From positions 27,773 to 91,772 of the forward strand of contig JACRAM010000057.1 of assembly GCA_016213405.1 (NCBI GenBank): DNA of 64,000 bases, read 5' to 3'. A program made the translations under genes and the position numbers. A model generated the notes under the pieces. That model was not told where the DNA came from. It saw only the letters and a program-made list of their open reading frames with translations, and ran no database searches. The number at the start of each line of letters is the position of its first letter. Position 1 is the stretch's first letter. Source of the stretch: Bacteroidota bacterium (GTDB lineage: Bacteria > Bacteroidota > Bacteroidia > Palsa-948). Of the stretch, positions 17,122 to 63,950 are shown in pieces.

Positions 17122-17133
17122 CTCATTGTATTC

Positions 17134-34496: not shown

Positions 34497-35588
34497 ATGT
34501 CAAACACCCTCGGCAAAATATTTTCACTTACCACTTTTGGAGAATCGCACGGAGTTGCGTTGGGCGGTGTGATTGATGGCTGTCCTGCCGGGTTAGCAAT
34601 TGATTTGGATTTTATTCAATCCGAACTTGACCGCAGAAGACCGGGACAATCCAACATTGTTTCGCAGCGGAAAGAAGGCGACAAAGTAGAATTCCTCTCT
34701 GGAATTTTTGAGGGCAAGACCACAGGAACTCCTATTGGCTTCATCATCAAAAACGAAAATCAAAAACCTCTAGACTACGATCATCTGATTGATGCGTATC
34801 GTCCTTCACACGCAGATTTTACCTACGATAAAAAATACGGCATCCGCGATCACAAAGGCGGAGGAAGAGCATCGGCACGTGCTACTGTTTCAAGTGTTGT
34901 TGGAGGAGCGATTGCAAAACTTCTTCTTAATAAGTCAGGAATTAAAATTTCTGCTTACACTTCGCAAGTTGGAGATATAAAACTTTTGAAAGATTATCAC
35001 ACGCTTGATTTATCTAAGACAGATTCCAACGCAGTGCGTTGTCCCGATGAGTTGATTGCCGACACGATGATTAAAAAAATTGAGCAGGTGAGAAAAGATG
35101 GCGATACGATTGGTGGAGTAATTTCCTGCATCGCGCAAAATATTCCGGTTGGTTTGGGCGAACCCATCTTTGACAAACTTAACGCAGAGTTAGGAAAAGC
35201 AATGCTTGGCATTAACGCAGTGAAAGGTTTTGAAATAGGAAGCGGATTTGAAGGCGTGAAGATGAAAGGAAGCGAGCACAATGACCAATTTCAAATTACG
35301 AATGACAAATTACGAATGACGAATATAAGAACCAAAACAAATTTCTCAGGAGGAATTCAAGGAGGAATTTCCAACGGAGAAGATATTTTTTTCACAGTAG
35401 CGTTCAAACCTGTTGCAACAATTATGCAAAAGCAAATGACAGTGAATTCAAAAGGAGAAGAAGTGGAGTTGATGGGAAAAGGTCGGCATGACCCTTGCGT
35501 TCTTCCCCGTGCGGTGTCGATTGTGGAGGCGATGTGCGCTCTGGTTCTGGCTGACCATTTGCTAAGGCACAGATGCACACAGATGTAA
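34497..35588 (+). CDS. aroC: Chorismate synthase
   Basis: [33 protein letters not shown]...RRPGQS. The track ORF starts 18 nt earlier at 34479. The ATG at 34497 gives the canonical N-terminus. Confidence 0.9.
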
Positions 35589-43732: not shown

Positions 43733-45997
43733 ATGAAAAAGATTACAATGTTATTCTCATCAGCATTTATTTTCATGAATGTTTTTGCGCAAGACAACGA
43801 TACCATCAATAAAGTCATTCAGTTGAATGAAATGGTGATTTCGGCAAATAAATCAGAAGAAAAAAAATCTGACATACCGCAAACGATCGAAATCATTAAA
43901 AGTAGGGATGTAGAGTTCAATAATCCGCAGACATCAGCTGATATGCTTCAGAGCACGGGAAATGTTTTCGTGCAGAAAAGTCAGGCAGGCGGAGGAAGTC
44001 CGGTGCTGAGGGGTTTTGAAGCGAACAGAGTTTTAATTGTAATTGACGGAATACGAATGAACAATGCTATTTACCGCGCTGGGCATTTGCAGGACGTAAT
44101 CACCGTTGACAACATGATGCTCGATAGAACGGAAGTTCTTTTTGGTCCAGCTTCCGTGATGTACGGGAGCGATGCACTGGGAGGCGTGATGCACTTCTAC
44201 ACAAAAAATCCTGAACTCGTCCGCAAGGACTCCTTCGGAGGAGATACTTCTGGCGTGAATACGAAAATAAATATCGGGCTTCGCTATTCAAGTGCGAACA
44301 GGGAAAACACCGCACATATCAATTTGAATCTTGGATACAAAAAAGTTGCTTTCCTCACCGGCATAACTTCGAGTGATTTTTCTGATTTAAGAAGCGGAAG
44401 TGTCCGTCCGCCATTTGACAAGCCATTCGGCAAGTGCAATTATTATGTGGTGCAATTGGACAGTCTGGATACGCTCATCAGAAACTCTGACCCGAATGTT
44501 CAGCGGTTTTCAGGATACAAACAATTTGACGTGATGCAGAAAATTCTTTTCCGGCAAAACAGCAGTGTTTCTCATCTTGTGAATTTTCAGTATTCCAATT
44601 CATCTGACATTCCGCGCTATGATCGCCTTCAGCAGTTTCAGCCCAACGCGGAACCCGTGTATGCAAAATGGCATTACGGTCCGCAGAAAAGAATTCTCGC
44701 TTCTCTGAAAACAAAAATTCTTTCGGAAGGAAAATTTTTTAATGACATGAACATCATTCTTGCCTGGCAGAATATTGAGCAAGAACGCGTGAGCAGAAAA
44801 TATAAAAAGACGAGCGAGAAAGACCAGCTGGAAAATGTGGGCGTTTATTCCGCGAACATTGATTTCAGAAAAGAGATAAATCCCGTAGGAACTTCTTCCA
44901 ACGGGATAAAAGAAAAACACGAACTGCATTACGGCATTGAAGGAACTTACAACGATGTGCAGTCCTCCGCCACGATGACGGATATTTTTACAAAAGTTGA
45001 AACCGCTACCGCACCTCGCTATCCCGATGGAGGAAGCACAATGATGACTTCCGCCATGTATCTTTCTCACAGCTGGGAGATAAATGAAAAATATATTCTC
45101 ACCGATGGCATTCGGTTTAACTATGTTGATTTGAAATCGCAGTGGAAAGACACCTCACTTTTTCATTTCCCGTTTTCTTCCATTGAACAAAAAAACAATG
45201 CTCTTAATGGGAATATTGGTTTCGTTGCCATGCCGGGATTCGGATGGAGATTCACTCTCCTTGGCTCAAGCGGGTTCCGCGCGCCAAATGTGGATGACAT
45301 GGGAAAAGTGAATGAGTCTGCTCAGGGACAACTCATTGTTCCGAATCCCGTTCTGAAACCCGAGTTCGCTTACAGCAGTGAAGCGGGGATTTCAAAAAAC
45401 TTCAGCGGGAAAGTAAAAATGGAAGCAGTTTATTTCTACACGCTTCTTCAAAATGCTATCGTGGTGAAAGACGATAAGTTTAACGGAGCCGATTCTGTTT
45501 TGTACGATGGCGTGATGAGCAAAGTGCAGTCGGCACAAAACGCAGATGAAGCATACATACAAGGATTTTCTGCAAACTTCATGGCAGACTTTGATGAAAA
45601 TTTTTCTCTGAAGAGTTCGATAAATTACACATACGGAATGTATAAAGACAAAGCAAACGATACGCTTGTTCCGATGGATCACATTCCGCCTGTGTTCGGG
45701 CAGACCACATTAATATATCACTATAAAAGAATTGAAACTGAATTTAACGTTCGATACAACGGATGGAAGCGCCTCGAAGATTACAGTCCGAGCGGAGAAG
45801 ATAATCTGGCACAAGCAACCGCTTATGGAATGCCGGCATGGTACACACTCAATTTTAAAACTGCGTTCGAAATAAATCCGCACATGAAAATCATCGTTGG
45901 AATGGATAATATCCTCGACATGCACTATCGCACTTTTGCTTCAGGCGTGAGCGCTCCCGGAAGAAATTTCATTTTTGCGATAAGAGCCAAACTATAA
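43733..45997 (+). CDS. TonB-dependent outer membrane receptor
   Basis: Signal peptide, plug-domain motifs (...NRVLIVIDGIRMNNA...), about 754 aa beta-barrel. Confidence 0.75.
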   Translation: MKKITMLFSSAFIFMNVFAQDNDTINKVIQLNEMVISANKSEEKKSDIPQTIEIIKSRDVEFNNPQTSADMLQSTGNVFVQKSQAGGGSPVLRGFEANRVLIVIDGIRMNNAIYRAGHLQDVITVDNMMLDRTEVLFGPASVMYGSDALGGVMHFYTKNPELVRKDSFGGDTSGVNTKINIGLRYSSANRENTAHINLNLGYKKVAFLTGITSSDFSDLRSGSVRPPFDKPFGKCNYYVVQLDSLDTLIRNSDPNVQRFSGYKQFDVMQKILFRQNSSVSHLVNFQYSNSSDIPRYDRLQQFQPNAEPVYAKWHYGPQKRILASLKTKILSEGKFFNDMNIILAWQNIEQERVSRKYKKTSEKDQLENVGVYSANIDFRKEINPVGTSSNGIKEKHELHYGIEGTYNDVQSSATMTDIFTKVETATAPRYPDGGSTMMTSAMYLSHSWEINEKYILTDGIRFNYVDLKSQWKDTSLFHFPFSSIEQKNNALNGNIGFVAMPGFGWRFTLLGSSGFRAPNVDDMGKVNESAQGQLIVPNPVLKPEFAYSSEAGISKNFSGKVKMEAVYFYTLLQNAIVVKDDKFNGADSVLYDGVMSKVQSAQNADEAYIQGFSANFMADFDENFSLKSSINYTYGMYKDKANDTLVPMDHIPPVFGQTTLIYHYKRIETEFNVRYNGWKRLEDYSPSGEDNLAQATAYGMPAWYTLNFKTAFEINPHMKIIVGMDNILDMHYRTFASGVSAPGRNFIFAIRAKL

Positions 45998-46086
45998 GAA
46001 GCCCCACCCCTTCCCTCCCCATTAGGGAGGGAGAAAGTAATGCAAGTCCTCCCCAATGGGGAGGATTTAGGAGGGGCTTTTTTATT
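45998..46086. repeat. GC-rich nested-palindrome element (family exemplar). It also functions as a terminator-like structure after the TonB receptor gene.
   Basis: GAAGCCCCACCCCTTCCCTCCCCATTAGGGAGGGAGAAAGTAATGCAAGTCCTCCCCAATGGGGAGGATTTAGGAGGGGCTTTTTTATTTT. Stems CCCTCCCC/GGGAGGG, CCTCCCC/GGGGAGG, GCCCC/GGGGC, then a T-run. Core repeated at 53341-53378 (reverse complement) and 63916-63950. Confidence 0.75.
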
Positions 46087-46092
46087 TTACAT

Positions 46093-46974
46093 TTGTATAT
46101 GTACAACGAACTCATGCTCAACCCAAATTCCCTCAAAGACAAAATCATCATTGTTACTGGAGGAGGAACAGGACTTGGAAAATCAATGGTGAAATGTTTT
46201 CTCCAGCTGGGAGCAAAGGTTGCCATCGCCAGCAGAAAAGAAGATGTGCTAAAAAAAACTGCCGAGGAACTTGCAAAAGAAACAGGCGGAGAAATTCTTC
46301 CAGTAAAATGCGATGTGCGCAATTACGAAGAAGTGGAAGCGATGATGAAAACTGTAATTGAAAAATTCGGAAGCTTTAATGTGCTTGTGAATAATGCCGC
46401 AGGAAATTTCATCAGCCCCACGGAAAGATTATCTCACCGCGCATTTGATACTGTAGTTGATATTGTTCTCAAAGGTTCTTACAACTGCGCGCTCGCTGCC
46501 GGAAAATACTGGATAAAAGAAAAAATAAAAGGAAACGTTCTCAGCACACTTGCCGCGTATGCATTCACGGGTTCAGGATATGTAGTGCCTTCCGCCTGCG
46601 GAAAAGCAGGAGTGCTTGCGCTCACGCAATCGCTCGCAGTGGAATGGGGAAAATTTGGAATTCGTTTGAATGCAGTTACACCCGGACCATTTCCTTCTGA
46701 AGGAGCGTGGTCTCGCTTAATGCCGGGAGAAATGTTTAAAAAGTTTGACCCGGCAAATACCACCGCGCTCGGCAGAATGGGCGAACATCAGGAACTCGCC
46801 AACCTATGCTCTTTTCTTGTTTCTGATTTCTCCTCGTACATCACCGGAGAAAATATTGTGATTGATGCGGGGCAATGGCTCAAAGGCGCAGGGCAATTCA
46901 ACGCGCTCGATATGGTTCCCAAAGAGATGTGGGATACCATTGAACAGCTTACACGCAAAGGAAAATCTTCGTAG
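46093..46974 (+). CDS. SDR-family oxidoreductase (2,4-dienoyl-CoA reductase / trans-2-enoyl-CoA reductase-like)
   Basis: TGGGTGLGKSM NAD(P)-binding motif, NNAAGNF, catalytic region ...YVVPSACGKAG... Confidence 0.8.
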   Translation: MYMYNELMLNPNSLKDKIIIVTGGGTGLGKSMVKCFLQLGAKVAIASRKEDVLKKTAEELAKETGGEILPVKCDVRNYEEVEAMMKTVIEKFGSFNVLVNNAAGNFISPTERLSHRAFDTVVDIVLKGSYNCALAAGKYWIKEKIKGNVLSTLAAYAFTGSGYVVPSACGKAGVLALTQSLAVEWGKFGIRLNAVTPGPFPSEGAWSRLMPGEMFKKFDPANTTALGRMGEHQELANLCSFLVSDFSSYITGENIVIDAGQWLKGAGQFNALDMVPKEMWDTIEQLTRKGKSS

Positions 46975-46976
46975 AA

Positions 46977-47020
46977 CCGCCCCCTCCAGACCTGTCCCGA
47001 TCGTAGCATCGGGAGGGGGA
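46977..47020. repeat. GC-rich palindromic element (CCCCTCC...CCCGATCGTAGCATCGGG...GGGAGGGGG) downstream of the SDR gene
   Basis: Nested palindromes CCCGAT/ATCGGG within CCCCTCC/GGGAGGGG. Intergenic. Confidence 0.5.
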
Positions 47021-47064
47021 CAAACACACTCACGGCACAAACCCCGTTGAACAAAAAACTATTT

Positions 47065-48024
47065 CTACGGGGTAAACTCCCACACCTCATGCAGGCAGAA
47101 GAAATAACATTTTCCCTGAAGGACAAACGCAGGAGAAAAATATTTTGATGGCAATTGAGAATCTTTTTTCTCTGTCCATGAGTCAGAAGACGGATTGTAT
47201 TCAAGCAAATTATTTTTTCCGCGAATAACATATCCTTTCCCACCAACAGAAAACGCACACAACGTGTCGTTTCCGGCAATAGGAAGGTCATTCTTATTTA
47301 TCCATTCAAGAGTGCGCGGATTAAATTCCCATAGCTGGTTGATGCAAACCCTTTTCTTATAGATGGAAGTAATGATGAATTCCCTTCCTCCCGCAGAAAA
47401 ATCAATATTGCTCCCGTTAATGTCAGAGTAACCGGGAGCAAGCGCCTTCTTTCCCCATTCGCTCTCAGTCCATGTATCGGTTAAAGGATTATACTTTTTT
47501 AAAACCCTGTATTCAGCATTCACACTCCAGGCAGTATCGTTTACCCCGTTGGATGAATCTCCTGCGGGGTGAAGCACAAAACAAATATCGCGGTCGGCTA
47601 AATAGTTATCGTTCCTTTTCGACCAGGTGTTTGCCAAAGGGTCAAACTCATACAGGTCCGGCTTGTAATCATTGCCTCCTGCGTTGGCTCCATACGGCAT
47701 AATGAAATAACCATAGCCAACATATCCTTTGCCGTTCAGGGAAAAACCCTTGGCGCCCAATCGCCCGCCATTCGGGAATTCCGCTTTCTGAGTCCAGGTG
47801 TTTTCTTCCGCGTCATACTCCCAAAAGTCATTGTATACTTTGTAAGTAAAAACCTCAATTTGTTTTTGCCCCATTCCGTAATATCCTTTGTTGCCTATTG
47901 AAAAGCTCACGGCAAAAAACCGCGAAGAGCCCGGAAAATCTTTTTTCTTTGTCCATTGCGAAAAACAGCTGGCAGCAGGCAAGAGGCAACAGGCAAAAAG
48001 GAAAAGAAGAAGTTTTGCTTTCAC
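47065..48024 (-). CDS. Kelch-repeat / beta-propeller secreted protein
   Basis: Repeated ...G.GY...WEYD...W motifs. A signal peptide (V/M)KAKLLLFLFACCLLPAASCFSQ follows a GTG at 48024. The track ORF (to 48213) probably over-extends into the neighbouring gene. Confidence 0.5.
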   Translation of the reverse strand: MKAKLLLFLFACCLLPAASCFSQWTKKKDFPGSSRFFAVSFSIGNKGYYGMGQKQIEVFTYKVYNDFWEYDAEENTWTQKAEFPNGGRLGAKGFSLNGKGYVGYGYFIMPYGANAGGNDYKPDLYEFDPLANTWSKRNDNYLADRDICFVLHPAGDSSNGVNDTAWSVNAEYRVLKKYNPLTDTWTESEWGKKALAPGYSDINGSNIDFSAGGREFIITSIYKKRVCINQLWEFNPRTLEWINKNDLPIAGNDTLCAFSVGGKGYVIRGKNNLLEYNPSSDSWTEKKDSQLPSKYFSPAFVLQGKCYFFCLHEVWEFTP

Positions 48025-48124
48025 ATAACAAAGATAATTTTTTGAATAAGTCCAGTGAATGGAGATTGCACTTCTCGAAAATGCATTAAAATAAGAATAG
48101 GATTGTAAAAGTGGGGGACAAACA

Positions 48125-49330
48125 TCAAAACATTTTTCGGTAACACCGCTTACGCTTGTGCTGAATATGCTCGTAACTCTTCCAGTTGGAAATGGCGTTG
48201 AGGTTGGTTTCAAAAATGCCGGTGGTCTCTATGTGCTTCATCCCCTTGCTCACCATTTCTTTCTGTATCTCTGCCATGAGAACCACACCCGCGCCTGTGT
48301 ACATCACTTCTTTTTTCACGCCTGTGAGCAGTTGGTCCATCACATCCTTGCCTTTGCGTGCCTTGAGGATGTGCAAAAAACCGAACGGGAAAAGTTTTCC
48401 GTTTGCTTTTTGCATGGCTTCGGATAAAGAAGGAAGACCTACGATGAATCCAACCAAAGCCCCCCTTAATCCCCCCGAAAGGGGGAAACTTGCGGATGCT
48501 TTTCCTGTGCTCCCCCCTTTGGGGGGAGGGGCTATTACCATCTTTACAAATTCAGGATTGAGAAGCTTGATATATTTCTCTTTGTAGAACGCCATCATCT
48601 TAGGAGAAAACTCTGAAACGAACGGGAGTTCGCTGAACGCGTCATTAAGTATCTTGAAAATAGTATCGGAATGCGGAAGCAGTTCATTCATTGTTTTAAA
48701 ATGAAGCACTTCTATGCCGTAGCGTTTCTGAATCAGTGCAGCACCGCGGGTTACTTTATCCACGATTCTCGGGTTGACAGTGAGGCGGAACTCGAGCCAG
48801 TCAATTTCTTTTACGTAGCCGAGTTTTTCTAAGTGCCGGTGATAATATTCATGATGATACACCGAACCGATAGATTGCAGATGGTTAAAACCTTCCACCA
48901 ACATTCCCTGCGTATCTAAATTCGCAAAGCCAAGCGGACCGTGAATGCCGATGGCTCCGTTTTCTTTTGCCCATGCTTCAACAGTGGAAATAAGCTTTGC
49001 GATTACTTCTGGAGAACCTGTGGTGAGCGGAGTCGAACCATCAAAGAATTCCAAGCGCGAGAAGCGCGCCATCTTTTCGTCTGTCTTTTTATTGTACTCT
49101 TCATTGATGATGGCTCCGATCCTTCCAACGCACTTGCCGTTCTTATAGGCTAACCAGAACTTTGCCTTGCAGAAATCAAACGCAGGATTTGTTTCCGCGA
49201 AAAGCGATTTCATTTCTCCTGCCTTCAATGGAGGAACCCAAAATTTATTGCCTTTGTAAATGTCAAACGGAAGATTTACAAACTGCTTTGCGTCACTCTT
49301 TGATTTAACTTGCTTTATTTCTATTGACAT
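48125..49330 (-). CDS. Hypothetical protein (possibly GNAT-fold acyltransferase-like) carrying an in-frame GC-rich element insertion
   Basis: No secure motif. The product contains the Pro/Gly-rich segment PPPKGGSTGKASASFPLSGGLRGA encoded by the palindromic element at 48458-48533. Confidence 0.35.
   Translation of the reverse strand: MSIEIKQVKSKSDAKQFVNLPFDIYKGNKFWVPPLKAGEMKSLFAETNPAFDFCKAKFWLAYKNGKCVGRIGAIINEEYNKKTDEKMARFSRLEFFDGSTPLTTGSPEVIAKLISTVEAWAKENGAIGIHGPLGFANLDTQGMLVEGFNHLQSIGSVYHHEYYHRHLEKLGYVKEIDWLEFRLTVNPRIVDKVTRGAALIQKRYGIEVLHFKTMNELLPHSDTIFKILNDAFSELPFVSEFSPKMMAFYKEKYIKLLNPEFVKMVIAPPPKGGSTGKASASFPLSGGLRGALVGFIVGLPSLSEAMQKANGKLFPFGFLHILKARKGKDVMDQLLTGVKKEVMYTGAGVVLMAEIQKEMVSKGMKHIETTGIFETNLNAISNWKSYEHIQHKRKRCYRKMF
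48458..48533. repeat. GC-rich palindromic element inserted in-frame in gene 48125..49330
   Basis: AGCCCCCCTTAATCCCCCCGAAAGGGGGAAACTTGC...CTCCCCCCTTTGGGGGGAGGGGCT. Stems CCCCC/GGGGG and CTCCCCCC/GGGGGGAG. The host reading frame is preserved. Confidence 0.6.
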
Positions 49331-49376
49331 AATTCTTTCTAACGGACAAATGTAATTCTATTTAATAAAATTCCAA

Positions 49377-49455
49377 CGAAGTACAAATCGTTACGAACTA
49401 CGAACGAATGTATTATTCGCTCTTCGTATGTTCGTGAATTTTTGTTCGTACTTCG
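49377..49455. promoter_or_regulatory. Composite imperfect inverted repeat built from TACGAAC/GTTCGTA half-sites upstream of gene 48125..49330 (-)
   Basis: CGAAGTACAAATCGTTACGAACTACGAACGAATG...TTCGTATGTTCGTGAATTTTTGTTCGTACTTCG. Two direct plus two inverted copies of TACGAAC, with outer arms CGAAGTAC/GTACTTCG. Confidence 0.4.
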
Positions 49456-49463
49456 ATGGGGTT

Positions 49464-50225
49464 TTAATTCAATCCCCGCTTCTTCTTAATATTCTCATAG
49501 GCTTCCTGCACCTTTTTAAATTTTTCGGTTGCCGAGCGCTGAACTTCTTCGCCTTCCTGTGCCACTTTATCGGGATGAAACTTGAGCGCCATCTTGCGGT
49601 ATGCCTTTTTTATTTCTTCATCGGTTGCCTTTTCATCCGTTTCAAGAATTTTGTAATCGCTGGTTGCATCGCGGTAATACATCGCCTTGATGGAATGCAT
49701 GTCGGCAGAATTAATTCCCATGTAATAGGCAATCTGTTCGATGGTAGAAATTTCGGCAGGGTGAATGGTTCCGTCAGCGTTGGAAAGTCCGTAGAGATAA
49801 TGAATGAGCTGCAGGCGCGAAGCAATGGGCATGAACTGTTTTATCTGTGCGCACACTTCGCGAATATCAATATCGCGCTTGAGAATTTCTTTGAGCAGAA
49901 GCATGTCGGCATTTGCTTTTGCTTCTCCGAACTGCCGGACGAAAAACCTTCTAACAAACTCCAACTCTGATTTCATTACAGCGCCATCGCTTTTCATCAC
50001 TGCGCCTGAAAGCACAAGAAGGGAAGCGGTGAAATCATTCACGGTGGCGGAAGCATAGGATGATGAAGTGGTTGTTCTTCCGCGCGTAACGGTTACTTCG
50101 CTTTCATCCAGCAAGGAGCCGAGTCCAAATCCAATGAGCGCTCCTATGGGTCCGCCAAGCGCCCAACCGAGTCCTCCACCTAACCATTTTCCAAAAGCCA
50201 TTTTCAGTCTGTAAATAAGCTCCAA
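49464..50225 (-). CDS. djlA: DjlA-like co-chaperone (N-terminal TM, TerB-like domain, C-terminal J domain)
   Basis: C-terminal J-domain YKILETDEKATDEEIKKAYRKMALKFHPDKV, N-terminal Gly-zipper TM, central TerB-like region. Confidence 0.65.
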   Translation of the reverse strand: MELIYRLKMAFGKWLGGGLGWALGGPIGALIGFGLGSLLDESEVTVTRGRTTTSSSYASATVNDFTASLLVLSGAVMKSDGAVMKSELEFVRRFFVRQFGEAKANADMLLLKEILKRDIDIREVCAQIKQFMPIASRLQLIHYLYGLSNADGTIHPAEISTIEQIAYYMGINSADMHSIKAMYYRDATSDYKILETDEKATDEEIKKAYRKMALKFHPDKVAQEGEEVQRSATEKFKKVQEAYENIKKKRGLN

Positions 50226-50353
50226 AGGAGTTCCTTCGGGAGAAAGCGAATGTACGAAACTCCTTTTCTCACTATGGTAAATTAAATTATCTTTGCGTCC
50301 CTTTTACCCGTAGGAAAATTTTCAACAGGTTTAACAGTAAATAAAAAATTCAA

Positions 50354-50914
50354 ATGGATACCACACAAGACATCAGCCTCGGCTCGGTGATCCGCTACAA
50401 CGGAGACCTTTGCCAGATAACCGAATTACAGCACCGCACACCGGGAAATAAACGTGCGTTCGTTCAGGTAAGAATGCGCAACCTCCGCACAGGAAAAACA
50501 CTTGACCAGCGCTACCGTTCTGGCGAACAACTTGAGATCGCGCGCCTCGAATATAAAATGATGCAATACCTCTATCCCGAAGGTGAAACGCTTGTTTGCA
50601 TGGATCCGATTACGTTTGAACAGATTTATGTTCCGAAAATGCTTTTCGGTGAAGGCACAAAGTTTCTGAAAGAGAACATGGAAGTGAAAATCGGAATTGA
50701 AAGCGATATTGCCATTTATGCCGAACCACCCACTTTTGTTGAAGTGGAAATCACTCACACCGAACCCGGAGTGAAAGGCAACACCGCCACCAACGCAATG
50801 AAACCTGCCACGGTTGAAACAGGCGCAACGGTTAACGTTCCTTTGTTCGTGAATCAAGGTGACAAAATCCGCATTGACACACGCACGAGCGAATATGTGG
50901 AGAGGGTAAAATAA
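50354..50914 (+). CDS. efp: Elongation factor P
   Basis: ...GSVIRYNGDLCQITELQHRTPGNKRAFVQVRMRNLRTGK... (KOW-like), 186 aa. Confidence 0.9.
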   Translation: MDTTQDISLGSVIRYNGDLCQITELQHRTPGNKRAFVQVRMRNLRTGKTLDQRYRSGEQLEIARLEYKMMQYLYPEGETLVCMDPITFEQIYVPKMLFGEGTKFLKENMEVKIGIESDIAIYAEPPTFVEVEITHTEPGVKGNTATNAMKPATVETGATVNVPLFVNQGDKIRIDTRTSEYVERVK

Positions 50915-51077
50915 TTTTTGGGCGCGTCCCTTCGGGTCACGCTTTCCGCTTCAATCGTTCGCGCAACAGCCACATGTCACTCCTACGGAGTTTAAATATT
51001 TTTTCGGAATGTATTTCTATTAACATATCGCTCCTGCGGAGCGAAGAAAATACAAATGCAAAATTTTATGGCTGTGC

Positions 51078-51180
51078 TTCCCCGTAGGGGAAAATGTTAA
51101 TAGCCCCGACCTTTAGGACGGGGGCAATTGCGCCACCACACAAACTCCCCTCTCCTGTTTTAGGAGAGGGTTTGGGGGTG
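51078..51180. repeat. Cluster of GC-rich hairpins in the efp-downstream intergenic region
   Basis: TTCCCCGTAGGGGAA, GCCCCGACCTTTAGGACGGGGGC, CCCCTCTCCTGTTTTAGGAGAGGGG (perfect 10-bp stem). The same family as the other GC-rich elements. Also TCGCTCCTGCGGAGCGA at 51035-51051. Confidence 0.55.
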
Positions 51181-51205
51181 AGGTCTATTTACTTTTATCT
51201 TTGCA

Positions 51206-52465
51206 TTGATGACCACTCCTTGGATTATAGTTTTAGTAATGCTAGTCCTCTCTGCATTTTTTTCAGGACTTGAAATCGCTTTTCTCACCGCCAACAAATT
51301 ACGGATTGAATTAATGAGCAAGCGAAATATTTTTCCTGCACAGATTCTCTCTTACTTCATAAAAAATTCTTCGCATTACATCAGTACCATGTTGGTAGGA
51401 AATTGCATTTCACTCGTAGTGTTCAGTATCTTCATGGCTCAGATTCTCCAACCGCATTTGATACAATACATTCAGTCTCCGATATTAATTCTTCTGCTAA
51501 CAACCGTTCTCTCCACAATTTTTATTCTTGTCACGGCTGAGTTTCTCCCCAAAAACCTTTTCAGAATAAATCCAAACCGAACGCTTTCCGTGTTTGCCGT
51601 TCCACTAATGCTCGTTTATCTGGCTTTGTTCCCGATCGTTTTCATCACCAATAAAATCGCTCGTTTCATTCTTACTTTTTTTCTCGGAACAAAATTCCCC
51701 GAGAAGAAACTTGCCTTCGGAAGAATTGACCTGCACCATTACATTCAGGAAAGCACTTCGCCAAACGTGGAGAGGAAGGAATTAGAAAACGAAGTGAAGA
51801 TATTTAAACGCGCCATGGGTTTTTCAAAAGTAAAAGCCCGCGACTGCATGATTCCAAGAACAGAAATCGTTGCAGTGAATGTGGAAGATTCGGTGGAAGA
51901 ACTTAAAAAAACTTTTATTGAAACCCGCCTCTCAAAAATTCTTGTCTTCCGCGACAGCGTGGATAATATCATCGGCTATACACACTCGTATGAAATCTTC
52001 AAGAAGCCGGAAAACATTTTATCGGTGCTTCTTCCTGTGATAATTGTTCCCGAATCCATGTCAGCAAACGAAGTGCTCACGCTTTTCATTCAACAACACA
52101 AGAGCGTTGCGCTGGTGGTAGATGAGTTTGGGGGAACATCGGGCATGCTCACGATGGAAGATATCATTGAAGAAATTTTCGGAGAGATCGAGGACGAGCA
52201 CGACAAAGATGAAATGGTGGAGAAGCAAATATCCGAGAATGAATTTGTTTTTTCAGGCCGGCACGAAATTGATTTCCTGAATGAAAAATACAAGTTGAGT
52301 TTACCGCAATCGGATGAATACACTACACTTGCAGGATTAATTCTTCACATCCGTCAGAGCCTTCCGAAAAATAATGAGATTGTGGTGATAAGTCCGTATG
52401 TTTTCAAAATCATCAGTACTTCAGATACTATGATTGAACAGGTTCAAGTGAAAATTCTCGACTAA
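51206..52465 (+). CDS. CNNM/CorC-HlyC family membrane protein (DUF21 + CBS pair + CorC_HlyC; GldE-like)
   Basis: Four N-terminal TM helices, tandem CBS region, C-terminal transporter-associated domain. Similar architecture to gliding motility protein GldE and hemolysin-family proteins. Confidence 0.65.
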   Translation: MMTTPWIIVLVMLVLSAFFSGLEIAFLTANKLRIELMSKRNIFPAQILSYFIKNSSHYISTMLVGNCISLVVFSIFMAQILQPHLIQYIQSPILILLLTTVLSTIFILVTAEFLPKNLFRINPNRTLSVFAVPLMLVYLALFPIVFITNKIARFILTFFLGTKFPEKKLAFGRIDLHHYIQESTSPNVERKELENEVKIFKRAMGFSKVKARDCMIPRTEIVAVNVEDSVEELKKTFIETRLSKILVFRDSVDNIIGYTHSYEIFKKPENILSVLLPVIIVPESMSANEVLTLFIQQHKSVALVVDEFGGTSGMLTMEDIIEEIFGEIEDEHDKDEMVEKQISENEFVFSGRHEIDFLNEKYKLSLPQSDEYTTLAGLILHIRQSLPKNNEIVVISPYVFKIISTSDTMIEQVQVKILD

Positions 52466-52507
52466 AATATTTTTCCAAAACAATCTTTTCATTCCAAACA
52501 GCAGACC

Positions 52508-52654
52508 TATGTTAAAATTACTTCCTCCTAAAAAGAATCTAAGAATAATTCTCTGCTTTTCTTTCCTGATTACTTGTCTTGTATTTTCTTCCTGTCACAC
52601 TCACAGAAAATGCAATGGAAAAAAAGCCATCATGACACCGATGGGACCGATGTA
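52508..52654 (+). CDS. Possible small ORF (48 aa, signal-peptide-like plus Cys) in the 322-nt leader region upstream of lysC
   Basis: MLKLLPPKKNLRIILCFSFLITCLVFSSCHTHRKCNGKKAIMTPMGPM. Not in the ORF track (under 60 aa). Could equally be non-coding leader. Confidence 0.2.
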
Positions 52655-52787
52655 AAAATTGTGATTTCGACCAAAGCGAGCAGTCTCCTCAAGTGAAGCA
52701 GAAATTATAAGAAGATTCTTCGCTTTGCTCAGACTGACAATTTACCTTCATTCGTATATTCGCAAACCTTAATTCGTTATTCGAAAA

Positions 52788-54173
52788 ATGAAAGTTTTAA
52801 AATTCGGTGGGACATCGCTTGGATCGGCAGAACGGATGAAAAATCTTGTTCAGCTTATCGTGAATGATGAGCCAAAGATTGTTGTTCTTTCTGCCATGAG
52901 CGGAACCACCAATGCATTGGTTGAAATCGCAAATGCACTTTACGAAAGAGAAAACAACAAAGCAAAGCAGCTCATTGACGCACTGGAAAAAAAATACGAA
53001 TTAGTTCTGAAAGAACTTTATTCAAAAGAATCTTCGCTTAACAAAGGAAAAGAGCTAGTAAAGAATCATTTTGAGTTTATCCGCTCTTTCACGCTGGATA
53101 TGTTCACCGCGAATGAGGAAAAAGCCATTCTCGCGCAGGGTGAACTTCTTTCCACCGCTATGGAACATTTTTATCTGGAAGAAATCGGGGTTGATTCTGT
53201 TCTGCTTCCTGCACTCAACTTTATGCGTATTGACGAGAACGATGAACCGGATCTGAAATACATTGAAGAGAACTTAAAAGCGGAATTAAAGAAATACCAA
53301 GCCCTACCTAAATCCTCCCCATCGGGGAGGACTTCAGAAAATACTCCCTCCCTAACGGGGAGGGTTGGGGAGGGGCTCTTATTTATCACACAGGGATATA
53401 TCTGCCGAAATGCATTCGGAGAAATTGATAATCTGAAACGTGGCGGAAGCGATTACACTGCAACGCTCATCGGTGCAGCACTTACTGCGGAAGAAATTCA
53501 AATCTGGACAGATATTGACGGCATGCACAACAATGACCCACGCATTGTTGACAAAACTTTTCCCGTCACTGATTTGTCATTTGAAGAAGCGGCAGAGCTT
53601 GCATATTTTGGAGCGAAGATTCTTCATCCTACCTGCGTAATTCCTGCAAAGAAGAGGAATGTTCCTGTTCGATTGCTGAACACAATGGAACCAAATGCAA
53701 AAGGAACGGTCATAACAAAAAAATCCCCGGGCGATAGAATCACGGCAGTTGCAGCCAAAGACGGAATCATCGCCATCAATATTAAATCTGCTCGAATGCT
53801 TTTAGCTTATGGGTTCCTGAGAAGCGTATTTGAAATTTTTGAGCGCTACAAAACTCCGATCGATATGATTACTACTTCGGAGGTAGCAGTATCGGTTACA
53901 ATTGATAACGACAAAAACTTAGAAGCTATTCTGAAAGAGCTGAAAGAATTTTGTTCTGTTGAAACAGATAAAGACCAAACTATTATTTGCATTGTAGGAA
54001 GTTTCACTGCAGAAAAACAAGGTGTAGCAGTAAAAATTTTTGCTGCGCTATCAACTATTCCTCTGAGAATGATTTCGTATGGCGGCAGCGAGAACAATGT
54101 TTCGGTGCTGGTGGAATCAAAATATAAAAAGGATGCGCTGGTTGCGCTTAATAAAGGATTGTTCAACTTATAA
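52788..54173 (+). CDS. lysC: Aspartate kinase (with C-terminal ACT domains) carrying an in-frame GC-rich element insertion
   Basis: MKVLKFGGTSLGSAERM... N-terminus, LKRGGSDYTATLIGAAL, C-terminal ACT repeats. Insert ALPKSSPSGRTSENTPSLTGRVGEGL immediately before the conserved ITQGY strand. Confidence 0.85.
   Translation: MKVLKFGGTSLGSAERMKNLVQLIVNDEPKIVVLSAMSGTTNALVEIANALYERENNKAKQLIDALEKKYELVLKELYSKESSLNKGKELVKNHFEFIRSFTLDMFTANEEKAILAQGELLSTAMEHFYLEEIGVDSVLLPALNFMRIDENDEPDLKYIEENLKAELKKYQALPKSSPSGRTSENTPSLTGRVGEGLLFITQGYICRNAFGEIDNLKRGGSDYTATLIGAALTAEEIQIWTDIDGMHNNDPRIVDKTFPVTDLSFEEAAELAYFGAKILHPTCVIPAKKRNVPVRLLNTMEPNAKGTVITKKSPGDRITAVAAKDGIIAINIKSARMLLAYGFLRSVFEIFERYKTPIDMITTSEVAVSVTIDNDKNLEAILKELKEFCSVETDKDQTIICIVGSFTAEKQGVAVKIFAALSTIPLRMISYGGSENNVSVLVESKYKKDALVALNKGLFNL
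53312..53378. repeat. GC-rich palindromic element inserted in-frame in lysC
   Basis: CCTCCCCATCGGGGAGG plus ACTCCCTCCCTAACGGGGAGGGTTGGGGAGGGGCTC. The second part is the reverse complement of the core at 63916-63950 and 45998-46034. Confidence 0.7.
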
Positions 54174-54181
54174 TGTATTAA

Positions 54182-54729
54182 CCCCATGCTTCAGCATGGG
54201 GGATAAAAACGGAAAACAAAAAGGGCTTTAGCCCTGAATTGAAAACGAGAATGTCATTTGTAAAAATATGGGTGCATGCAGTATGGGGTACTAAAAACCG
54301 TACTCCTGTTCTTTCGAAAGAGATTCGAATGAAATTGTTTCAGCACATAAGAGAAAATGCAAAGGAAAAAGAAATCTATATTGATTTTATTAATGGACAT
54401 CTTGACCATGTTCATTGTTTGCTTGCATTGAATGCCGAAATGAGCATTTCAAAAGCAATTCAATTGCTTAAAGGCGAATCAGCATTCTGGGCAAACAAAA
54501 ATAAATTAACAGAAGCAAAATTAGAGTGGGCAGACGAATACTTCGCTGTTTCCGTCAGCGAATCTTTGATTGACAAAGTCAGAGATTACATAAAAAATCA
54601 GGAACAACATCATGCAAAAATTACATTCATGCAGGAGTATGAAAATTTTATGCAGAAATATGAATTTATAAATCATGGCTAAAGCCCTTTTAATACGATT
54701 ATGATATACTCCACACTTAAGTGCGGAGT
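54182..54729 (+). mobile_element. REP-associated tyrosine transposase (RAYT)-like unit: Y1 HUH transposase gene flanked by small inverted hairpins. Inserted between lysC and lysA.
   Basis: Flanks: CCCCATGCTTCAGCATGGGGG (54182-54202) and AGGGCTTTAGCCCT (54222-54235) upstream; GGCTAAAGCCC (54678-54688) and ACTCCACACTTAAGTGCGGAGT (54708-54729) downstream. Confidence 0.55.
54239..54682 (+). CDS. IS200/IS605-type Y1 (HUH) transposase, REP-associated tyrosine transposase (RAYT)-like
   Basis: MKTRMSFVKIWVHAVWGTKNRTPVLS... and HUH motif in GHLDHVHCLLAL. 147 aa, typical size. Single-domain Y1 transposase. Confidence 0.6.
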   Translation: MKTRMSFVKIWVHAVWGTKNRTPVLSKEIRMKLFQHIRENAKEKEIYIDFINGHLDHVHCLLALNAEMSISKAIQLLKGESAFWANKNKLTEAKLEWADEYFAVSVSESLIDKVRDYIKNQEQHHAKITFMQEYENFMQKYEFINHG

Positions 54730-54738
54730 TAAAACAAA

Positions 54739-55926
54739 ATGTTCAGCAAAGAAACCATACAAAAATTCCAGAGCACTCCTACTCCATTTTATTATTATGA
54801 TTTGGATTTGCTGAATCGTACCATTGAAGCACTGAAAAAAGAATCGGAGAAATATAGCTACCACATTCATTACGCTCTCAAAGCAAATGCGAATGATGAA
54901 ATACTTTCTGTGATTAAAAAATCAGGATTAGGTGCAGACTGCGTGAGCGGAAATGAGGTGAAGAAAGCCAGCGAACACAAGTTTGAAAAAATATTTTTTG
55001 CAGGAGTCGGAAAAAGCGATGAAGAAATAAATACCGCACTGGATTGCAACATTACTTGTTTCAATTGTGAAAGTTTGCAGGAGATTGAAGTAATAAATGA
55101 ACTTGCGAAGAAAAAAAGCAAAATCGCGCAAATCGCTTTCCGCATAAATCCGAATGTGAACGCGAATACGCATAAATACATTACTACAGGATTGGAAGAA
55201 AATAAATTCGGAATTAATATCTGGGAACTGGAAGAAGTGGTGAAGAGAACACAGCAACTGAAGAATATAAAAATTTCAGGAATTCATTTTCACATCGGGT
55301 CGCAGATTACGGATTTGAGCGCATTCAAATCACTTTGCTTGCGCGCGAATGAAATTCAGAGTTGGTTTGTGAGTCACAAGGTTTCATTGGAACATATAAA
55401 TGTCGGAGGCGGTCTAGGTGTGGATTACCACTACCCCGACAAAAATTCAATACCTGATTTTTCTTCTTACTTTGGCTTGTTCAAACAATTTTTAGAACTA
55501 CGCCCGAAACAAATTCTCCATTTTGAAATCGGCAGAGCCATTGTGGCACAATGCGGAAGCTTGATTTCAAAAGTGCTCTATGTAAAAAAAGGAGTGAGCA
55601 CAAGTTTTGTAATTCTTGATGCAGGAATGACAGAATTGATTCGTCCTGCACTGTATCAATCGTATCACAAAATACAGAAGTTAGGAGTTGGGGGTTCGGA
55701 GTTGGGAGCAACAGCCAACTCCTCCGAACTCCACACTCCACACTCCGCACTAATGAAATATGATGTGGTGGGTCCCATCTGCGAATCATCCGACTGTTTT
55801 GGCAAAGCGGTAATGCTTCCTGAAACAAAGCGTGGGGATTTAGTTGCTATCCGTACAACTGGCGCGTACGGTGAAGTAATGGCTTCGCAATATAATTTAA
55901 GAGAGAAGGTGAAGGCATTTTATTAG
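54739..55926 (+). CDS. lysA: Diaminopimelate decarboxylase carrying an in-frame GC-rich element insertion
   Basis: PLP fold-III decarboxylase: ...YHIHYALKANAN..., ...GGGLGVDY..., C-terminal ...ESSDCFGK...GAYG.... Insert LGVGGSELGATANSSELHTPHSA between conserved blocks. Confidence 0.85.
   Translation: MFSKETIQKFQSTPTPFYYYDLDLLNRTIEALKKESEKYSYHIHYALKANANDEILSVIKKSGLGADCVSGNEVKKASEHKFEKIFFAGVGKSDEEINTALDCNITCFNCESLQEIEVINELAKKKSKIAQIAFRINPNVNANTHKYITTGLEENKFGINIWELEEVVKRTQQLKNIKISGIHFHIGSQITDLSAFKSLCLRANEIQSWFVSHKVSLEHINVGGGLGVDYHYPDKNSIPDFSSYFGLFKQFLELRPKQILHFEIGRAIVAQCGSLISKVLYVKKGVSTSFVILDAGMTELIRPALYQSYHKIQKLGVGGSELGATANSSELHTPHSALMKYDVVGPICESSDCFGKAVMLPETKRGDLVAIRTTGAYGEVMASQYNLREKVKAFY
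55684..55750. repeat. GC-rich palindromic element inserted in-frame in lysA
   Basis: GGAGTTGGGGGTTCGGAGTTGGGAGCAACAGCCAACTCCTCCGAACTCCACACTCCACACTCCGCAC. Arms TTCGGAGTTGG / CCAACTCC(TC)CGAA. ACTCCACACT is shared with the hairpin at 54708. Confidence 0.6.
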
Positions 55927-56588
55927 TGTTTCAGCTTTCCTTTGAAAACTTTCTGAAACTTTTCCACTTTGGGTTTTATCACAAACTGGCAGTAAGATTC
56001 TTCACCGTTATTATTGTAATAGTTTGAATGATAATCTTCAGCTTTGTAAAAAACAGTGAATGGTGAAATTTCTGTTACTACAGGAGAATTATAAACCTTT
56101 TCATCGTTCAGTTTTTTCTTGTAGAGTTCGGCAAGTTTTTTCTGATTTTCGTTGTGATAAAAAATTGCAGAACGGTACTGTGTGCCGATATCGTTACCCT
56201 GCCTGTTCAATTGCGTAGGGTCATGCGTTTGCCAAAAAGCGTACAGCATTTCTTCGTAAGAAATTTTTTTCGAATCAAAAACAATATTGCAAACCTCAGC
56301 ATGTCCGGTATTTCCGTTGCAGACTTCTTTATAAGAAGGATTCTTAATGCTTCCACCAGAAAATCCTGACTCCACTTTCACCACACCGTCAAGCATCTGA
56401 AATTGCGCTTCCACACACCAGAAACATCCGGCACCGAATGTTGCGGTGTCAAGATTTGAAGCTTGAGATTTAGCGGTAGTTGTTGAATCAGTTTTTGTTT
56501 CCATAGTTGGTACTTCTTTATTTTGATTCTGCACGCAGGAAGTAAGAGAAATGATTCCCATCACTGCGTTAAAAAAATTTGATTTCAT
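55923..56588 (-). CDS. msrA: Peptide methionine sulfoxide reductase MsrA (with lipoprotein-type signal)
   Basis: Catalytic GAGCFWCVEAQF motif. N-terminal signal ending TSC. 4-nt overlap with lysA stop (convergent). Confidence 0.85.
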   Translation of the reverse strand: MKSNFFNAVMGIISLTSCVQNQNKEVPTMETKTDSTTTAKSQASNLDTATFGAGCFWCVEAQFQMLDGVVKVESGFSGGSIKNPSYKEVCNGNTGHAEVCNIVFDSKKISYEEMLYAFWQTHDPTQLNRQGNDIGTQYRSAIFYHNENQKKLAELYKKKLNDEKVYNSPVVTEISPFTVFYKAEDYHSNYYNNNGEESYCQFVIKPKVEKFQKVFKGKLKH

Positions 56589-56759
56589 AAATTGAATTTT
56601 AAAGGTAGAAATGTTTTCAATAGTTATTACTTTCTATTCAGAGAAAAGGTTTCGTTAAATATTGTTAAACAACCGAGATTCAGACGAAAAAAAACACGAA
56701 TGCAAACGGATAAATCTGTCTAAATCTTTCTTCGTATTATTGCGTTCCGAATCATCTAT

Positions 56760-59297: not shown

Positions 59298-59399
59298 TGA
59301 AAATTATTTTTGCCTTGCCTCCAACTCTCGAGAAACCTCCTGTCGATGTGAAAGAAAATAAATTGAGAAATATAAAAAGTAAGATTACGTTTTAGAGAA

Positions 59400-61466: not shown

Positions 61467-61475
61467 ATTCTATCT

Positions 61476-62756: not shown

Positions 62757-62800
62757 GGTTATACCTCTTTTTGTATATTCGTATCCCTTCATTTAAGCAG

Positions 62801-63916
62801 ATGGAAAACTTCATTGTATCAGCACGAAAGTATCGTCCTCAGACGTTTGACACCGTTGTCGGGCAGGCGCATATTACGAGCACTTTAATAAATGCTATTA
62901 AAACAAACCACGTTTCCCAGGCGTATTTGTTCTGCGGTCCACGCGGAGTAGGAAAAACTACCTGCGCGCGAATTCTGGCGAAGACAATCAACTGCTTTAA
63001 CCGAACAACAAATATTGAAGCGTGCGATGAATGTGATTCATGCAAATCATTTAATACAGGTAACTCATTAAATATTTTTGAACTTGATGCAGCATCAAAT
63101 AATTCGGTGGAAGATATCCGCAATCTGATTAATCAGGTGAGTTTTGCCCCACAAATCGGAACTCACAAAGTATATATTATTGATGAGGTTCATATGCTTT
63201 CGTCAAATGCGTTCAATGCTTTTCTGAAAACGCTGGAAGAGCCGCCAAAACACGCAATTTTCATTCTGGCGACTACGGAAAAACATAAAATTATTCCTAC
63301 GATACTTTCCCGATGCCAGATCTTTGATTTCAACCGGATAAAGATTGATGATATTGTCGGACATCTTTCAACTATTTCAAAAAAAGAAAAAGTAAAATCC
63401 GAAGAAGAAGCGCTGCACACCATCGCCCAAAAAGTAGATGGGTCCATGCGCGATGCACTGAGTATTTTCGACCAGATGGTTTCGCTGTCGGGAGATGTGA
63501 TTACGTATAAATCGGTCATCGACAATCTCAGCATTCTGGATTATGATTATTATTTCAAGGTGACGGATGCATTGCTGGAAAAAAATACTTCTTCATCGCT
63601 TCTCATCTTCAACGAAATACTGAACAAAGGTTTTGACGGACATCATTTCATCAACGGATTAGCAGAGCATTTGAGAAATCTCTTGGTATGCCGAGATGAA
63701 ATTACGCTACAACTTTTAGAAGTAAGTACGAGCATTCGCGGACTCTACAAAACGCAGAGCAAAAAAACAGAACCTGATTTTCTCCTTCGTTGCCTGAGCA
63801 TTCTCAACAAAGCGGATGTGCAGTACAAAGCCAGCCGAAACCAGCGCTTGTTGGTGGAACTTACACTTCTTCAGTTGTGTTCGCTACAAGGCGCTGAAAA
63901 AAAAAATGATATACTG
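62801..63916 (+). CDS. dnaX: DNA polymerase III subunit gamma/tau, zero-frame product (371 aa, domains I-III). Tau-type extension continues in the -1 frame after an A9 run.
   Basis: MENFIVSARKYRPQTFDTVVGQAHIT...GPRGVGKTT...DEVHML...SRCQIFDF...QRLLVELTLLQLCSLQGAEKKMIY then TGA at 63914-63916. Frame verified at several motifs. This ORF is absent from the supplied track. The -1 frame is open to the window end. Confidence 0.75.
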
Positions 63917-63950
63917 AGCCCCACCCCTGCCCTCCCCGTTAGGGAGGGAG
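63897..63950 (+). other. Candidate recoding site in dnaX: A9 slippery run (63897-63905) followed by GC-rich stem-loop element (63916-63950)
   Basis: GCT GAA AAA AAA ATG ATA TAC TGA in zero frame. After a -1 shift or one extra A: ...KKNDILSPTPALPVREGENKTISSKIVSEVKEEQ. Stem CCCTCCC(63929-63935)/GGGAGGG(63941-63947). Confidence 0.55.

Follow-up and report, generated by a model that had tools for sequence, protein, structure and literature searches.

A family of GC-rich inverted hairpin elements in Bacteroidota and its association with DUF559 endonuclease genes

RESULTS

GC-rich hairpin elements lie between and within genes of a Bacteroidota contig

We analyzed a 64-kb stretch of DNA from a Bacteroidota bacterium (assembly GCA_016213405.1, contig JACRAM010000057.1, positions 27,773 to 91,772 of the forward strand; here called the window) that carries a family of short, GC-rich palindromic elements, some in the spacers between genes and others inside genes such as lysC and dnaX. 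The window has an overall GC content of ~40%. Its exact public match was a single 3.8-kb contig from a metagenome run (Logan SRR12113407), and its nearest relatives are uncultured Bacteroidota metagenome-assembled genomes (MAGs). No tRNA genes were found in it, and a search of the window against Rfam returned nothing at gathering score; the element itself gave only sub-threshold matches to miRNA-like hairpins. For comparison, we used five syntenic loci (L122, L123, L124, L125, and L126) and a wider set of unit-bearing loci totaling 1.65 Mb, most of which were picked because they contain a unit of the kind described below. The members of the family in the window are as follows.

46000-46078, plus strand: doublet of 79 bp in the spacer from a TonB-dependent receptor gene, whose stop codon occupies 45995-45997, to an SDR gene
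48458-48533, minus strand: sister doublet, in frame in a GNAT-like gene (48125-49330, minus strand)
51147-51186, minus strand: single reversed unit in the efp-CNNM spacer, CCCCTCTCC-TGTTTTA-GGAGAGGG-TTT-GGGGGTGAGGTCT
53300-53377, minus strand: doublet of 78 bp, in frame within lysC (52788-54173), encoding ALPKSSPSGRTSENTPSLTGRVGEG
60400-60432, plus strand: decayed unit remnant inside a BatA-family gene (59400-61466)
63917-63950, plus strand: single A-unit of 34 nt, in frame in the linker region of dnaX (SPTPALPVREGE)

A first-pass annotation, made from the letters alone, had described a family of at least eight copies. The three copies that share its core and those at 48458-48533, 51147-51186, and 60400-60432 (the last in decayed form) belong to the family. 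The remaining two do not: the fold of 46977-47020 is indistinguishable from those of shuffles (z = -0.8), and 55684-55750 is of reversed polarity and lacks relatives in the 1.65 Mb of fetched loci. The latter is part of a strong 82-nt hairpin (55674-55755; z = -4.1) with the purine arm first, an in-frame insertion in lysA; the same lysA site in L124 holds an unrelated, pyrimidine-first hairpin.

Each unit follows a single plan in which a C-rich tail (AGCCCCACCCC; consensus AGCCC[C/A][A/T]CC..) is followed by a hairpin with its pyrimidine arm first and its purine arm second, the whole measuring ~35 nt and having sharp edges. Units are of two types. The A-unit reads AGCCCCACCCC-NN-CCCTCCCC-RTTA-GGGAGGG-AG, and the B-unit reads AAGT-CCTCCCC-NNN-GGGGAGG-ATTTAGGAGGGGCT. 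A doublet (~80 bp) consists of an A-unit, a short spacer, and an inverted B-unit; the two tails are mutually complementary, and the ends form terminal inverted repeats (AGCCCCACC.. and ..GGAGGGGCT) in addition to the inverted hairpin units. The hairpin arms contain zero stop codons in any frame, and the B-unit is open in four of its six frames. The core sequence, CCCTCCCCRTTAGGGAGGG, occurs at 46013(+), 53346(-), and 63930(+), with 0 matches in 100 shuffles. When GC hairpins were defined by a stem of at least 6 (GC, at least 5) in which the 5' arm is entirely pyrimidine and the 3' arm entirely purine, seven were found in the window, all of them within 45998-63950, i.e., in its last 18 kb; hairpins of the opposite polarity numbered 0, as did those in shuffles.

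The doublet at 46000-46078 is made up of an A-unit at 46000-46033 (AGCCCCACCCCTT-CCCTCCCC-ATTA-GGGAGGG-AG), a spacer at 46034-46043, and a B-unit at 46044-46078 (AAGT-CCTCCCC-AAT-GGGGAGG-ATTTAGGAGGGGCT), after which comes TTTTTT. As RNA, it is predicted to form a three-way junction with the outer stem AAGAAGCCCC/GGGGCUUUUUU. The predicted folds of the three doublets in the window reach -50.3 (46000-46078), -46.7, and -49.6 kcal/mol, with z scores against shuffles of -5.2, -4.0, and -3.3. In lysC, the first-pass annotation had delimited only the right half of the copy (53341-53378); the copy is in fact a full doublet with an A-unit (reverse complement of 53344-53377) and a B-unit (reverse complement of 53300-53334).

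The other copies are more divergent. The sister doublet at 48458-48533, AGCCCC-CCTTAA-TCCCCCC-GAAA-GGGGGAA...CTCCCCCC-TTT-GGGGGGAG-GGGCT, shares its architecture and its AGCCCC/GGGGCT termini with the core copies and has a significant fold (z = -3.3), and it has no sequence relatives in the fetched loci; its match to the family is one of architecture and termini only. The unit at 51147-51186 belongs to a hairpin cluster (51078-51186) that also includes TTCCCCGTAGGGGAA (51078-51092) and AGCCCCGACCTTTAGGACGGGGGC (51103-51126). The cluster occupies a spacer of 291 bp that measures 52 bp in L122, and 22 to 23 nt of the tail of the unit are matched in L025 and L038; the entire cluster folds with a z score of only -1.8. 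The remnant at 60400-60432 has no significant fold (z = -0.6); at the same BatA site, L124 has a clear unit, CCCCTCTTCC-GT-GGGAGAGGGG-TC-GGGGGTGAGG. The dnaX unit is orthologous in the window and L122, with a compensatory change in the stem (CCCTCCCC/GGGAGGG versus CCTTTCCC/GGGAAGG). Both the dnaX copy and the BatA copy have orthologous counterparts in relatives and are older.

The first-pass annotation had also noted T-runs after the intergenic copies and had suggested that these copies may act as terminators. A T-run does follow the doublet at 46000-46078; among the metagenome matches listed, T makes up at least 4 of the following 6 nt for only 34 of 114 B-units. A generic terminator scan of the window found no excess over shuffles and missed the branched structure at 46000-46078. 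A terminator role is plausible for that copy only.

The units are widespread in Bacteroidota, and their hairpins covary

Two public scans each returned at least 120 stretches, and the copy numbers and range of taxa taken from them are minimum values. The first compared the A-unit hairpin with one genome per species, and the second compared the B-unit tail with metagenome contigs that carry no taxon labels (29 to 46% GC). Where labeled, matches in the first scan were mostly from Bacteroidota; those listed include Fibrella, Spirosoma, and other Cytophagales, Sphingobacteriales, Mucilaginibacter, Prevotella and other Bacteroidales, Saprospiraceae, and Aequorivita. The tail CCCCACCCC lies outside the pattern used for that scan and is nonetheless present in most of the Bacteroidota matches listed. 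Besides the window, loci from JACRAL, Fibrella, Spirosoma, and Prevotella contain doublets, the element in Fibrella and Spirosoma being a near-perfect inverted doublet. Neither a set of 2.9 million viral contigs nor the plasmids of PLSDB contained a match.

Among the matches listed, 108 unique copies of the B-unit could be compared. The part that the search pattern did not force, AAGTCCTTCCCTTYG, is ~90 to 96% conserved except at the variable Y, and conservation ends abruptly one base further out, which gives the unit a sharp left edge. An A-unit lies within 115 nt of ~40% of these B-units, and ~60% are singletons; 82 of 107 copies are intergenic, and the other 25 are inside open reading frames (ORFs) of at least 120 amino acids. 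For the A-unit, an alignment of 36 copies had 96.3% of its cells paired in the hairpin and contained 25 double-change cells, compared to 7.1 +/- 2.0 in shuffles, a value reached by 0 of 500 shuffles; every slid control was lower. The hairpin of the A-unit thus covaries.

The B-unit stem has a conserved G.T mismatch at its base. Reading it as a G.U pair in RNA was not supported, because the strand with the A.C mismatch is the commoner one downstream of genes (42 versus 20). Orientation bias downstream of genes is itself weak (singletons, 26 versus 13, P = 0.05) and is not significant for doublets. Separately, canonical G-quadruplex motifs number just three in the window (0.16 expected); they lie at 46002-46020, 53357-53375, and 63919-63937 and are the G-rich strands of the three A-units. 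We rejected the quadruplex as a conserved function because only 15 of the 45 metagenome A-units among the matches listed keep the motif.

Empty and filled alleles identify insertions in conserved genes

The empty sites that the first-pass annotation had suggested seeking in related strains exist for both lysC and the GNAT-like gene. LysC homologues that are 85 to 92% identical to the LysC of the window have 438 amino acids and read PGKK or SGKK at the insert site, while other homologues carry inserts of differing length and sequence at exactly that site. In DNA alignments with relatives that are ~80% identical, the lysC segment measures 81 nt in the window versus 12 nt in L122 and L125 (net gain, 69 nt), and the GNAT-like segment measures 79 nt versus ~16 nt in L122, L123, and L124 (net gain, 63 nt). 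The intragenic copies keep the reading frame of their hosts, as had been stated in the first-pass annotation; the net gains of 69 and 63 nt preserve the frame although the elements themselves measure 78 and 76 nt. Since close orthologues (80 to 92% identical) lack them, the lysC and GNAT-like segments are insertions. No direct repeat, i.e., no target-site duplication, was found at the junctions of the lysC, GNAT-like, and TonB-receptor/SDR sites, and in lysC and the GNAT-like gene 12 to 16 nt of the empty allele were replaced upon insertion.

The filled lysC alleles (window, L123, L124, and L126) have position, frame, and orientation in common and are scattered among empty ones in a neighbor-joining tree of the flanking protein. 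This pattern is compatible with a single insertion that spread by recombination or homing and with recurrent insertion at a single preferred site. The TonB-receptor/SDR spacer is filled in opposite orientations in the window and L122 and is empty in L126.

In an AlphaFold (AF2) model of LysC, insert residues 173-195 are predicted to be coil, with a pLDDT of <50, between a helix (156-171) and a strand (198-202); Escherichia coli LysC (2j0w) is gapped here, and distant homologues lack the inserted segments. Among LysC orthologues P0042, P0046, P0051, and P0054, LysC has a second in-frame insertion site of the hairpin type (alignment columns 112-128; SPPFKGGQGGF and a longer variant), and one orthologue has a C-terminal extension that resembles the element (SSPALLPRGEGSEKQP).

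DUF559 endonuclease genes are bracketed by inverted units

In L123, the spacer between lysC and lysA contains a 99-amino-acid DUF559 gene between two inverted units; in the window, the same slot holds a Y1 gene, described below. A tblastn search of all fetched loci with DUF559 queries gave 18 matches in 12 independent loci. Inverted units flank the gene on both sides at 10 of the 12 and on one side at the other 2. Counting hairpins within 260 nt of each match, 15 of 18 had them on both sides, 3 had them on one side, and 0 had them on neither; random intervals from the same loci gave values of 8%, 22%, and 70%, respectively. A protein database search with the DUF559 domain returned 277 matches, mostly stand-alone proteins of ~125 amino acids. 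Three locus groups chosen from protein homology alone, and thus without regard to units, were all flanked by inverted units:

L247: DUF559 locus of Prevotella sp. E9-3 (CP091786.1)
L249: DUF559 locus with the window's own B-unit, in which a GH94 gene is split
L250-255: group of DUF559 loci downstream of GlnRS

Some of the units around DUF559 genes match those of the window or closely resemble them. L121 has the exact A-unit hairpin of the window (CCCTCCCC-ATTA-GGGAGGGAG), and L007 has a closely related A-type hairpin with the CCCCACCCC tail. A search based on geometry (inverted unit pairs 250 to 4,000 bp apart) found only L007 and L093, and L007 holds DUF559. The full-length form of the element comprises two inverted units around a DUF559 gene of ~100 to 160 codons. 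At four loci, the host ORF is open through the entire unit-DUF559-unit cassette, the hosts being RNase HI (L243), IleRS (L203), MetH (L198), and a MurF-alanine racemase fusion (L007). In these four in-frame fusions, we detected no intron and no Hint/intein domain, and Pfam reported only DUF559 (with MTES_1575) and the host domains on either side of it. With no splicing module detected, the insert would stay in the host protein. In L249, a TAG inside the B-unit is the stop codon of DUF559, and all 10 of the sense-strand B-units within ORFs are in the frame, (K/Q)VLPFGKDLGWA, that continues a DUF559 ORF.

Full-length and miniature forms occupy one orthologous site. Between lysC and lysA, L123 has unit-DUF559-unit and L124 has an ORF-less doublet, and the two have orthologous termini (CCTCAT[C/T]CCC...GGGGT[G/A]AG).

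DUF559 matches PDB entry 3hrl with an E value of 1e-20 and, more weakly, the homing endonuclease I-Bth0305I in its catalytic domain (3r3p; E = 0.004). Vsr, DUF559, and I-Bth0305I have been placed in one clade (Steczkiewicz et al. 2012, PMC3424549). From its sequence context, the DUF559 endonuclease is the only gene that we found consistently bracketed by units and is a better candidate for the mobilizing function than the RAYT proposed in the first-pass annotation.

A hairpin repeat also occurs in a different phylum. The Armatimonadota MAG SMAG_U4746 (~67% GC; L045, L099, L103, L111, and L120) has its own repeat, formed around the same CCCCTCCCC-TTTA-GGGAGGGG hairpin, and a DUF559 gene in L045 (2979-3251) has long inverted repeats on either side that include a related CCCCTCCC/GGGAGGGG hairpin with different loops.

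A proposed origin of the miniatures and the points against it

We favor, with somewhat more than even confidence, the interpretation that the elements in the window are ORF-less miniatures of a Bacteroidota-wide family of selfish elements, the full-length form of which carries a gene for DUF559, a Vsr-like PD-(D/E)XK endonuclease, and that they are probably mobilized by that enzyme. The miniatures would be nonautonomous relatives of the DUF559 cassette and would be mobilized in trans by a DUF559 endonuclease encoded elsewhere in the genome. The endonuclease may make a break in DNA, and repair would then copy the element into a new or empty site, the lost target bases reflecting resection before repair. 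Break-and-copy insertion of this kind would explain both the lack of target-site duplication and the loss of 12 to 16 target nt. Since the arms are free of stops and four frames out of six can be read through the B-unit, in-frame insertions in tolerant loops would survive as Pro/Ser/Gly-rich peptides. Intergenic copies would form very stable stem-loops, some of which could terminate transcription. Vsr nicks at T:G mismatches, and beside this the conserved basal G.T mismatch of the B-unit stem is intriguing, although any connection is speculation.

Several points weigh against this interpretation. The 64-kb window contains no DUF559 gene, and a trans-acting copy in the host organism has to be assumed. 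Similarity between the L124 spacer and the DUF559 ORF of L123 is not significant overall against shuffles, and the change between these two loci could have run in either direction, with the ORF deleted from a full-length copy or inserted into an existing doublet. About 60% of the B-units among the matches listed are singletons, for which a pure deletion-derivative model needs further decay. Copies at many unrelated sites are a poor fit to a strictly site-specific homing endonuclease. Selection for a unit underlies most of the fetched loci, the three protein-selected groups excepted, and both cleavage by DUF559 and mobility of the element are proposals drawn from sequence comparison.

Alternative explanations and the neighboring Y1 gene

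The strongest alternative, which we nevertheless regard as unlikely, is that the units are an independent REP (repetitive extragenic palindromic)-like repeat, moved by some other mobilizer or by gene conversion, and that DUF559 genes are parasites that home into the spacers of doublets and so mark doublets rather than move them. DUF559 always lies between two inverted units, singleton units are common, the ORF-less doublet between lysC and lysA in L124 could be ancestral, and the lack of significant homology between its spacer and the L123 ORF agrees with this as well; entry of insertion sequences into REPs is documented, as cited in PMC3733652. However, the 1.65 Mb of loci yielded no other candidate mobilizer, and the coding arrangement argues otherwise: the use of a TAG within the B-unit as the DUF559 stop codon in L249 and the reading through of units in the in-frame fusions suggest that the ORF and the units are integrated, and all 10 in-ORF sense B-units are in the frame that continues DUF559.

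A second alternative, which we consider improbable, is that the units are of the REP/REPIN type and are moved on single-stranded DNA by a HUH Y1 enzyme, either the neighboring one or a RAYT elsewhere in the genome. The unit architecture (a conserved tail plus a hairpin, in inverted doublets) is REP/BIME/REPIN-like, target-site duplication is absent, the base of the B-unit stem has its conserved G.T mismatch, singletons show the weak orientation bias downstream of genes noted above, and a distance of 860 bp separates the lysC copy from a Y1 gene:

54239-54682, plus strand: IS200-like Y1 gene, TnpA-Y1 subclass 1.2 (Pfam Y1_Tnp, E = 1.7e-27), not part of the element family

The motifs of this gene, DHVH and YIKNQEQHH, fit the description of subclass 1.2, which is low-copy, occurs in Cyanobacteria and Bacteroidetes, and has no reported REPs (Quentin et al. 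2018, PMC6006769). The gene is flanked by its own inverted 14-nt hairpin (AGGGCTTTAGCCCT, at 54222-54235 and 54675-54688), which is unrelated to the units and occurs nowhere else in the window or the fetched loci. A second subclass 1.2 gene (L117 38-487) is likewise flanked, by different private hairpins (CTGGCTTCCAGCCAG), and subclass 1.2 is generally without terminal structures (Quentin et al. 2018, PMC6006769). The REPs published for RAYT subclass 2.6 of the Bacteroidetes bear no relation to the units (Spirosoma linguale example, GCTGGCGCGAGCATATGCTCGTGCC), and the units lack the GTAG/CGTC foot. Only 2 to 3 Y1 matches, which is no enrichment, were found in the 1.65 Mb of unit-bearing loci, and none of them was flanked by units. 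On subclass, flanks, literature, and lack of co-location, we rejected the link to RAYT that the first-pass annotation had proposed.

Compared to L122, in which there is no such gene between lysC and lysA, the Y1 gene and its hairpins (54219-54691) are an insertion. Across the window and the five syntenic loci, this short spacer is a hot spot of small selfish elements: the window has the Y1 gene there (54174-54738), L123 the DUF559 cassette (5465-5939), L124 the ORF-less doublet (8946-9080), L125 (6130-6199) and L126 (11390-11445) other hairpins, and L122 nothing; the adjoining spacers of L125 and L126 contain toxin genes (ParE and Zeta).

We give next to no credence to the last alternative, that the elements are immobile, with either local, convergent origins as GC-rich terminator hairpins and low-complexity Pro/Gly linkers or descent from ancestral protein sequence, for even though the intergenic copy is terminator-like, sites 46977 and 60400 fold no better than shuffles, and the bare 19-mer hairpin also occurs in GC-rich phyla in other contexts, this explanation is already contradicted by the empty-site and copy-identity data: near-identical stretches of 34 to 79 nt occur at unrelated loci (0 expected by chance), the 108 copies have sharp edges and ~90 to 96% conservation on contigs of 29 to 46% GC, presence of the inserts varies among close orthologues, and distant homologues are without the segments. 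Chance repetition and ancestral protein sequence were also the two ways in which the first-pass annotation had allowed that its family might prove spurious.

Unrelated repeats in the window

The window contains other repeats. A tandem array at 16778-17122 has ~8 copies with a 42-nt period (66 to 84% identical), and internal repeats at 883-2115, 819 nt apart in an ORF of 2,022 amino acids (151-6219), suggest duplicated domains. An ACCCGT...ACGGGT hairpin recurs at 13782-13811, 15824-15853, and 50302-50331, two of the copies being 93% identical. Two intergenic segments, 35287-35318 and 56785-56816, form a 32-nt inverted repeat (84% complementary) with a reiterated ATTACGAATGACAAATT-like motif.

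DISCUSSION

The elements in the window resemble several known classes of repeat without sharing all the defining features of any of them. They are similar in form to REP, BIME, and REPIN sequences: they are dispersed, short, GC-rich imperfect palindromes (units of 34 to 35 nt) with a conserved 5' foot, they occur as singles or as inverted doublets of two sub-types (compare the Y and Z palindromic units of E. coli BIMEs), and they are mostly intergenic, with some within ORFs and no target-site duplication. They differ in the foot, which reads AGCCC[C/A][A/T]CC.. or ..GGGGCT and not GTAG or CGTC, the sequences by which the REP foot is defined (PMC3733652, PMC6006769). Unlike in REPtrons, no unit-flanked RAYT or Y1 gene was found in the window or the 1.65 Mb of loci; the associated gene encodes a PD-(D/E)XK (DUF559) endonuclease and not a HUH enzyme. 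Finally, the sequence of the unit is conserved across orders, not within a species or genus.

Rickettsia palindromic elements, to which the first-pass annotation had aptly likened the family along with REPs, are likewise dispersed palindromes that insert in frame in genes for conserved proteins (here, lysC, the GNAT-like gene, and dnaX) and add a peptide at tolerant sites, such as the low-confidence surface loop of LysC, while orthologues lack the insert. The Rickettsia elements belong to another phylum, the units are much shorter, and homology is not expected; the Rickettsia elements are also without an associated protein gene, whereas the family described here has full-length members that bear an endonuclease gene. 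With miniature inverted-repeat transposable elements (Correia/NEMIS, Nezha, and RUP), the units share small size, lack of coding sequence, dispersal, inverted ends, and termini common to a larger coding partner. They differ from these in that target nucleotides are lost and no target site is duplicated and in that the larger partner with the same ends encodes a putative Vsr-like endonuclease (~100 to 160 amino acids) rather than an insertion sequence transposase.

The comparison with homing endonucleases of the I-Bth0305I/Vsr-like (EDxHD) type likewise goes only part of the way. DUF559 is related in sequence to the catalytic domain of I-Bth0305I, and among close relatives the lysC insert is either missing or found at one site in one orientation. 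As with inteins, the endonuclease domain can stand in frame inside essential genes; unlike with inteins or introns, no intron or Hint domain was detected in the full-length fusions. Copies occur at numerous unrelated sites, hairpin-unit flanks and miniatures are not known features of homing genes, and the copies in the window are without an ORF, the endonuclease ORF being confined to the full-length relatives.

A more distant parallel is offered by the GC clusters, or double-hairpin elements, of fungal mitochondria, which are GC-rich sequences in an AT-rich genome, lie between and inside genes, and are polymorphic for presence or absence. These are organellar and are not known to be related in sequence, and we know of no endonuclease gene of the DUF559 kind that is associated with them. 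In the searchable full text, which leaves most subscription journals out of reach, we found neither an account of the element family nor one of a mobile element built on DUF559, in keeping with the first-pass annotation, in which the family was taken to be uncharacterized.

Our preferred interpretation, that the elements are miniatures of a DUF559 cassette, can be extended to a broader proposal that we hold more tentatively and with less than even confidence. Bacteroidota may harbor an undescribed class of selfish DNA in which a DUF559 gene sits between largely stop-free inverted hairpin modules, stands in frame in essential genes without being spliced out, and spawns numerous miniatures; this would give DUF559 a role. 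DUF559 is a very common domain that is annotated only as "endonuclease domain-containing protein." If the proposal is correct, the domain would acquire both a role, in the mobility of elements, and a candidate DNA substrate, the hairpin units, and there would be a bacterial selfish endonuclease cassette in essential genes that is translated through rather than spliced. The units would be sharp markers for strain typing and a likely source of assembly and annotation artifacts. Such elements would also explain many unusual insertions rich in Pro/Ser/Gly, as well as length polymorphisms and split gene calls, in the proteins of Bacteroidota, gut Prevotella included.

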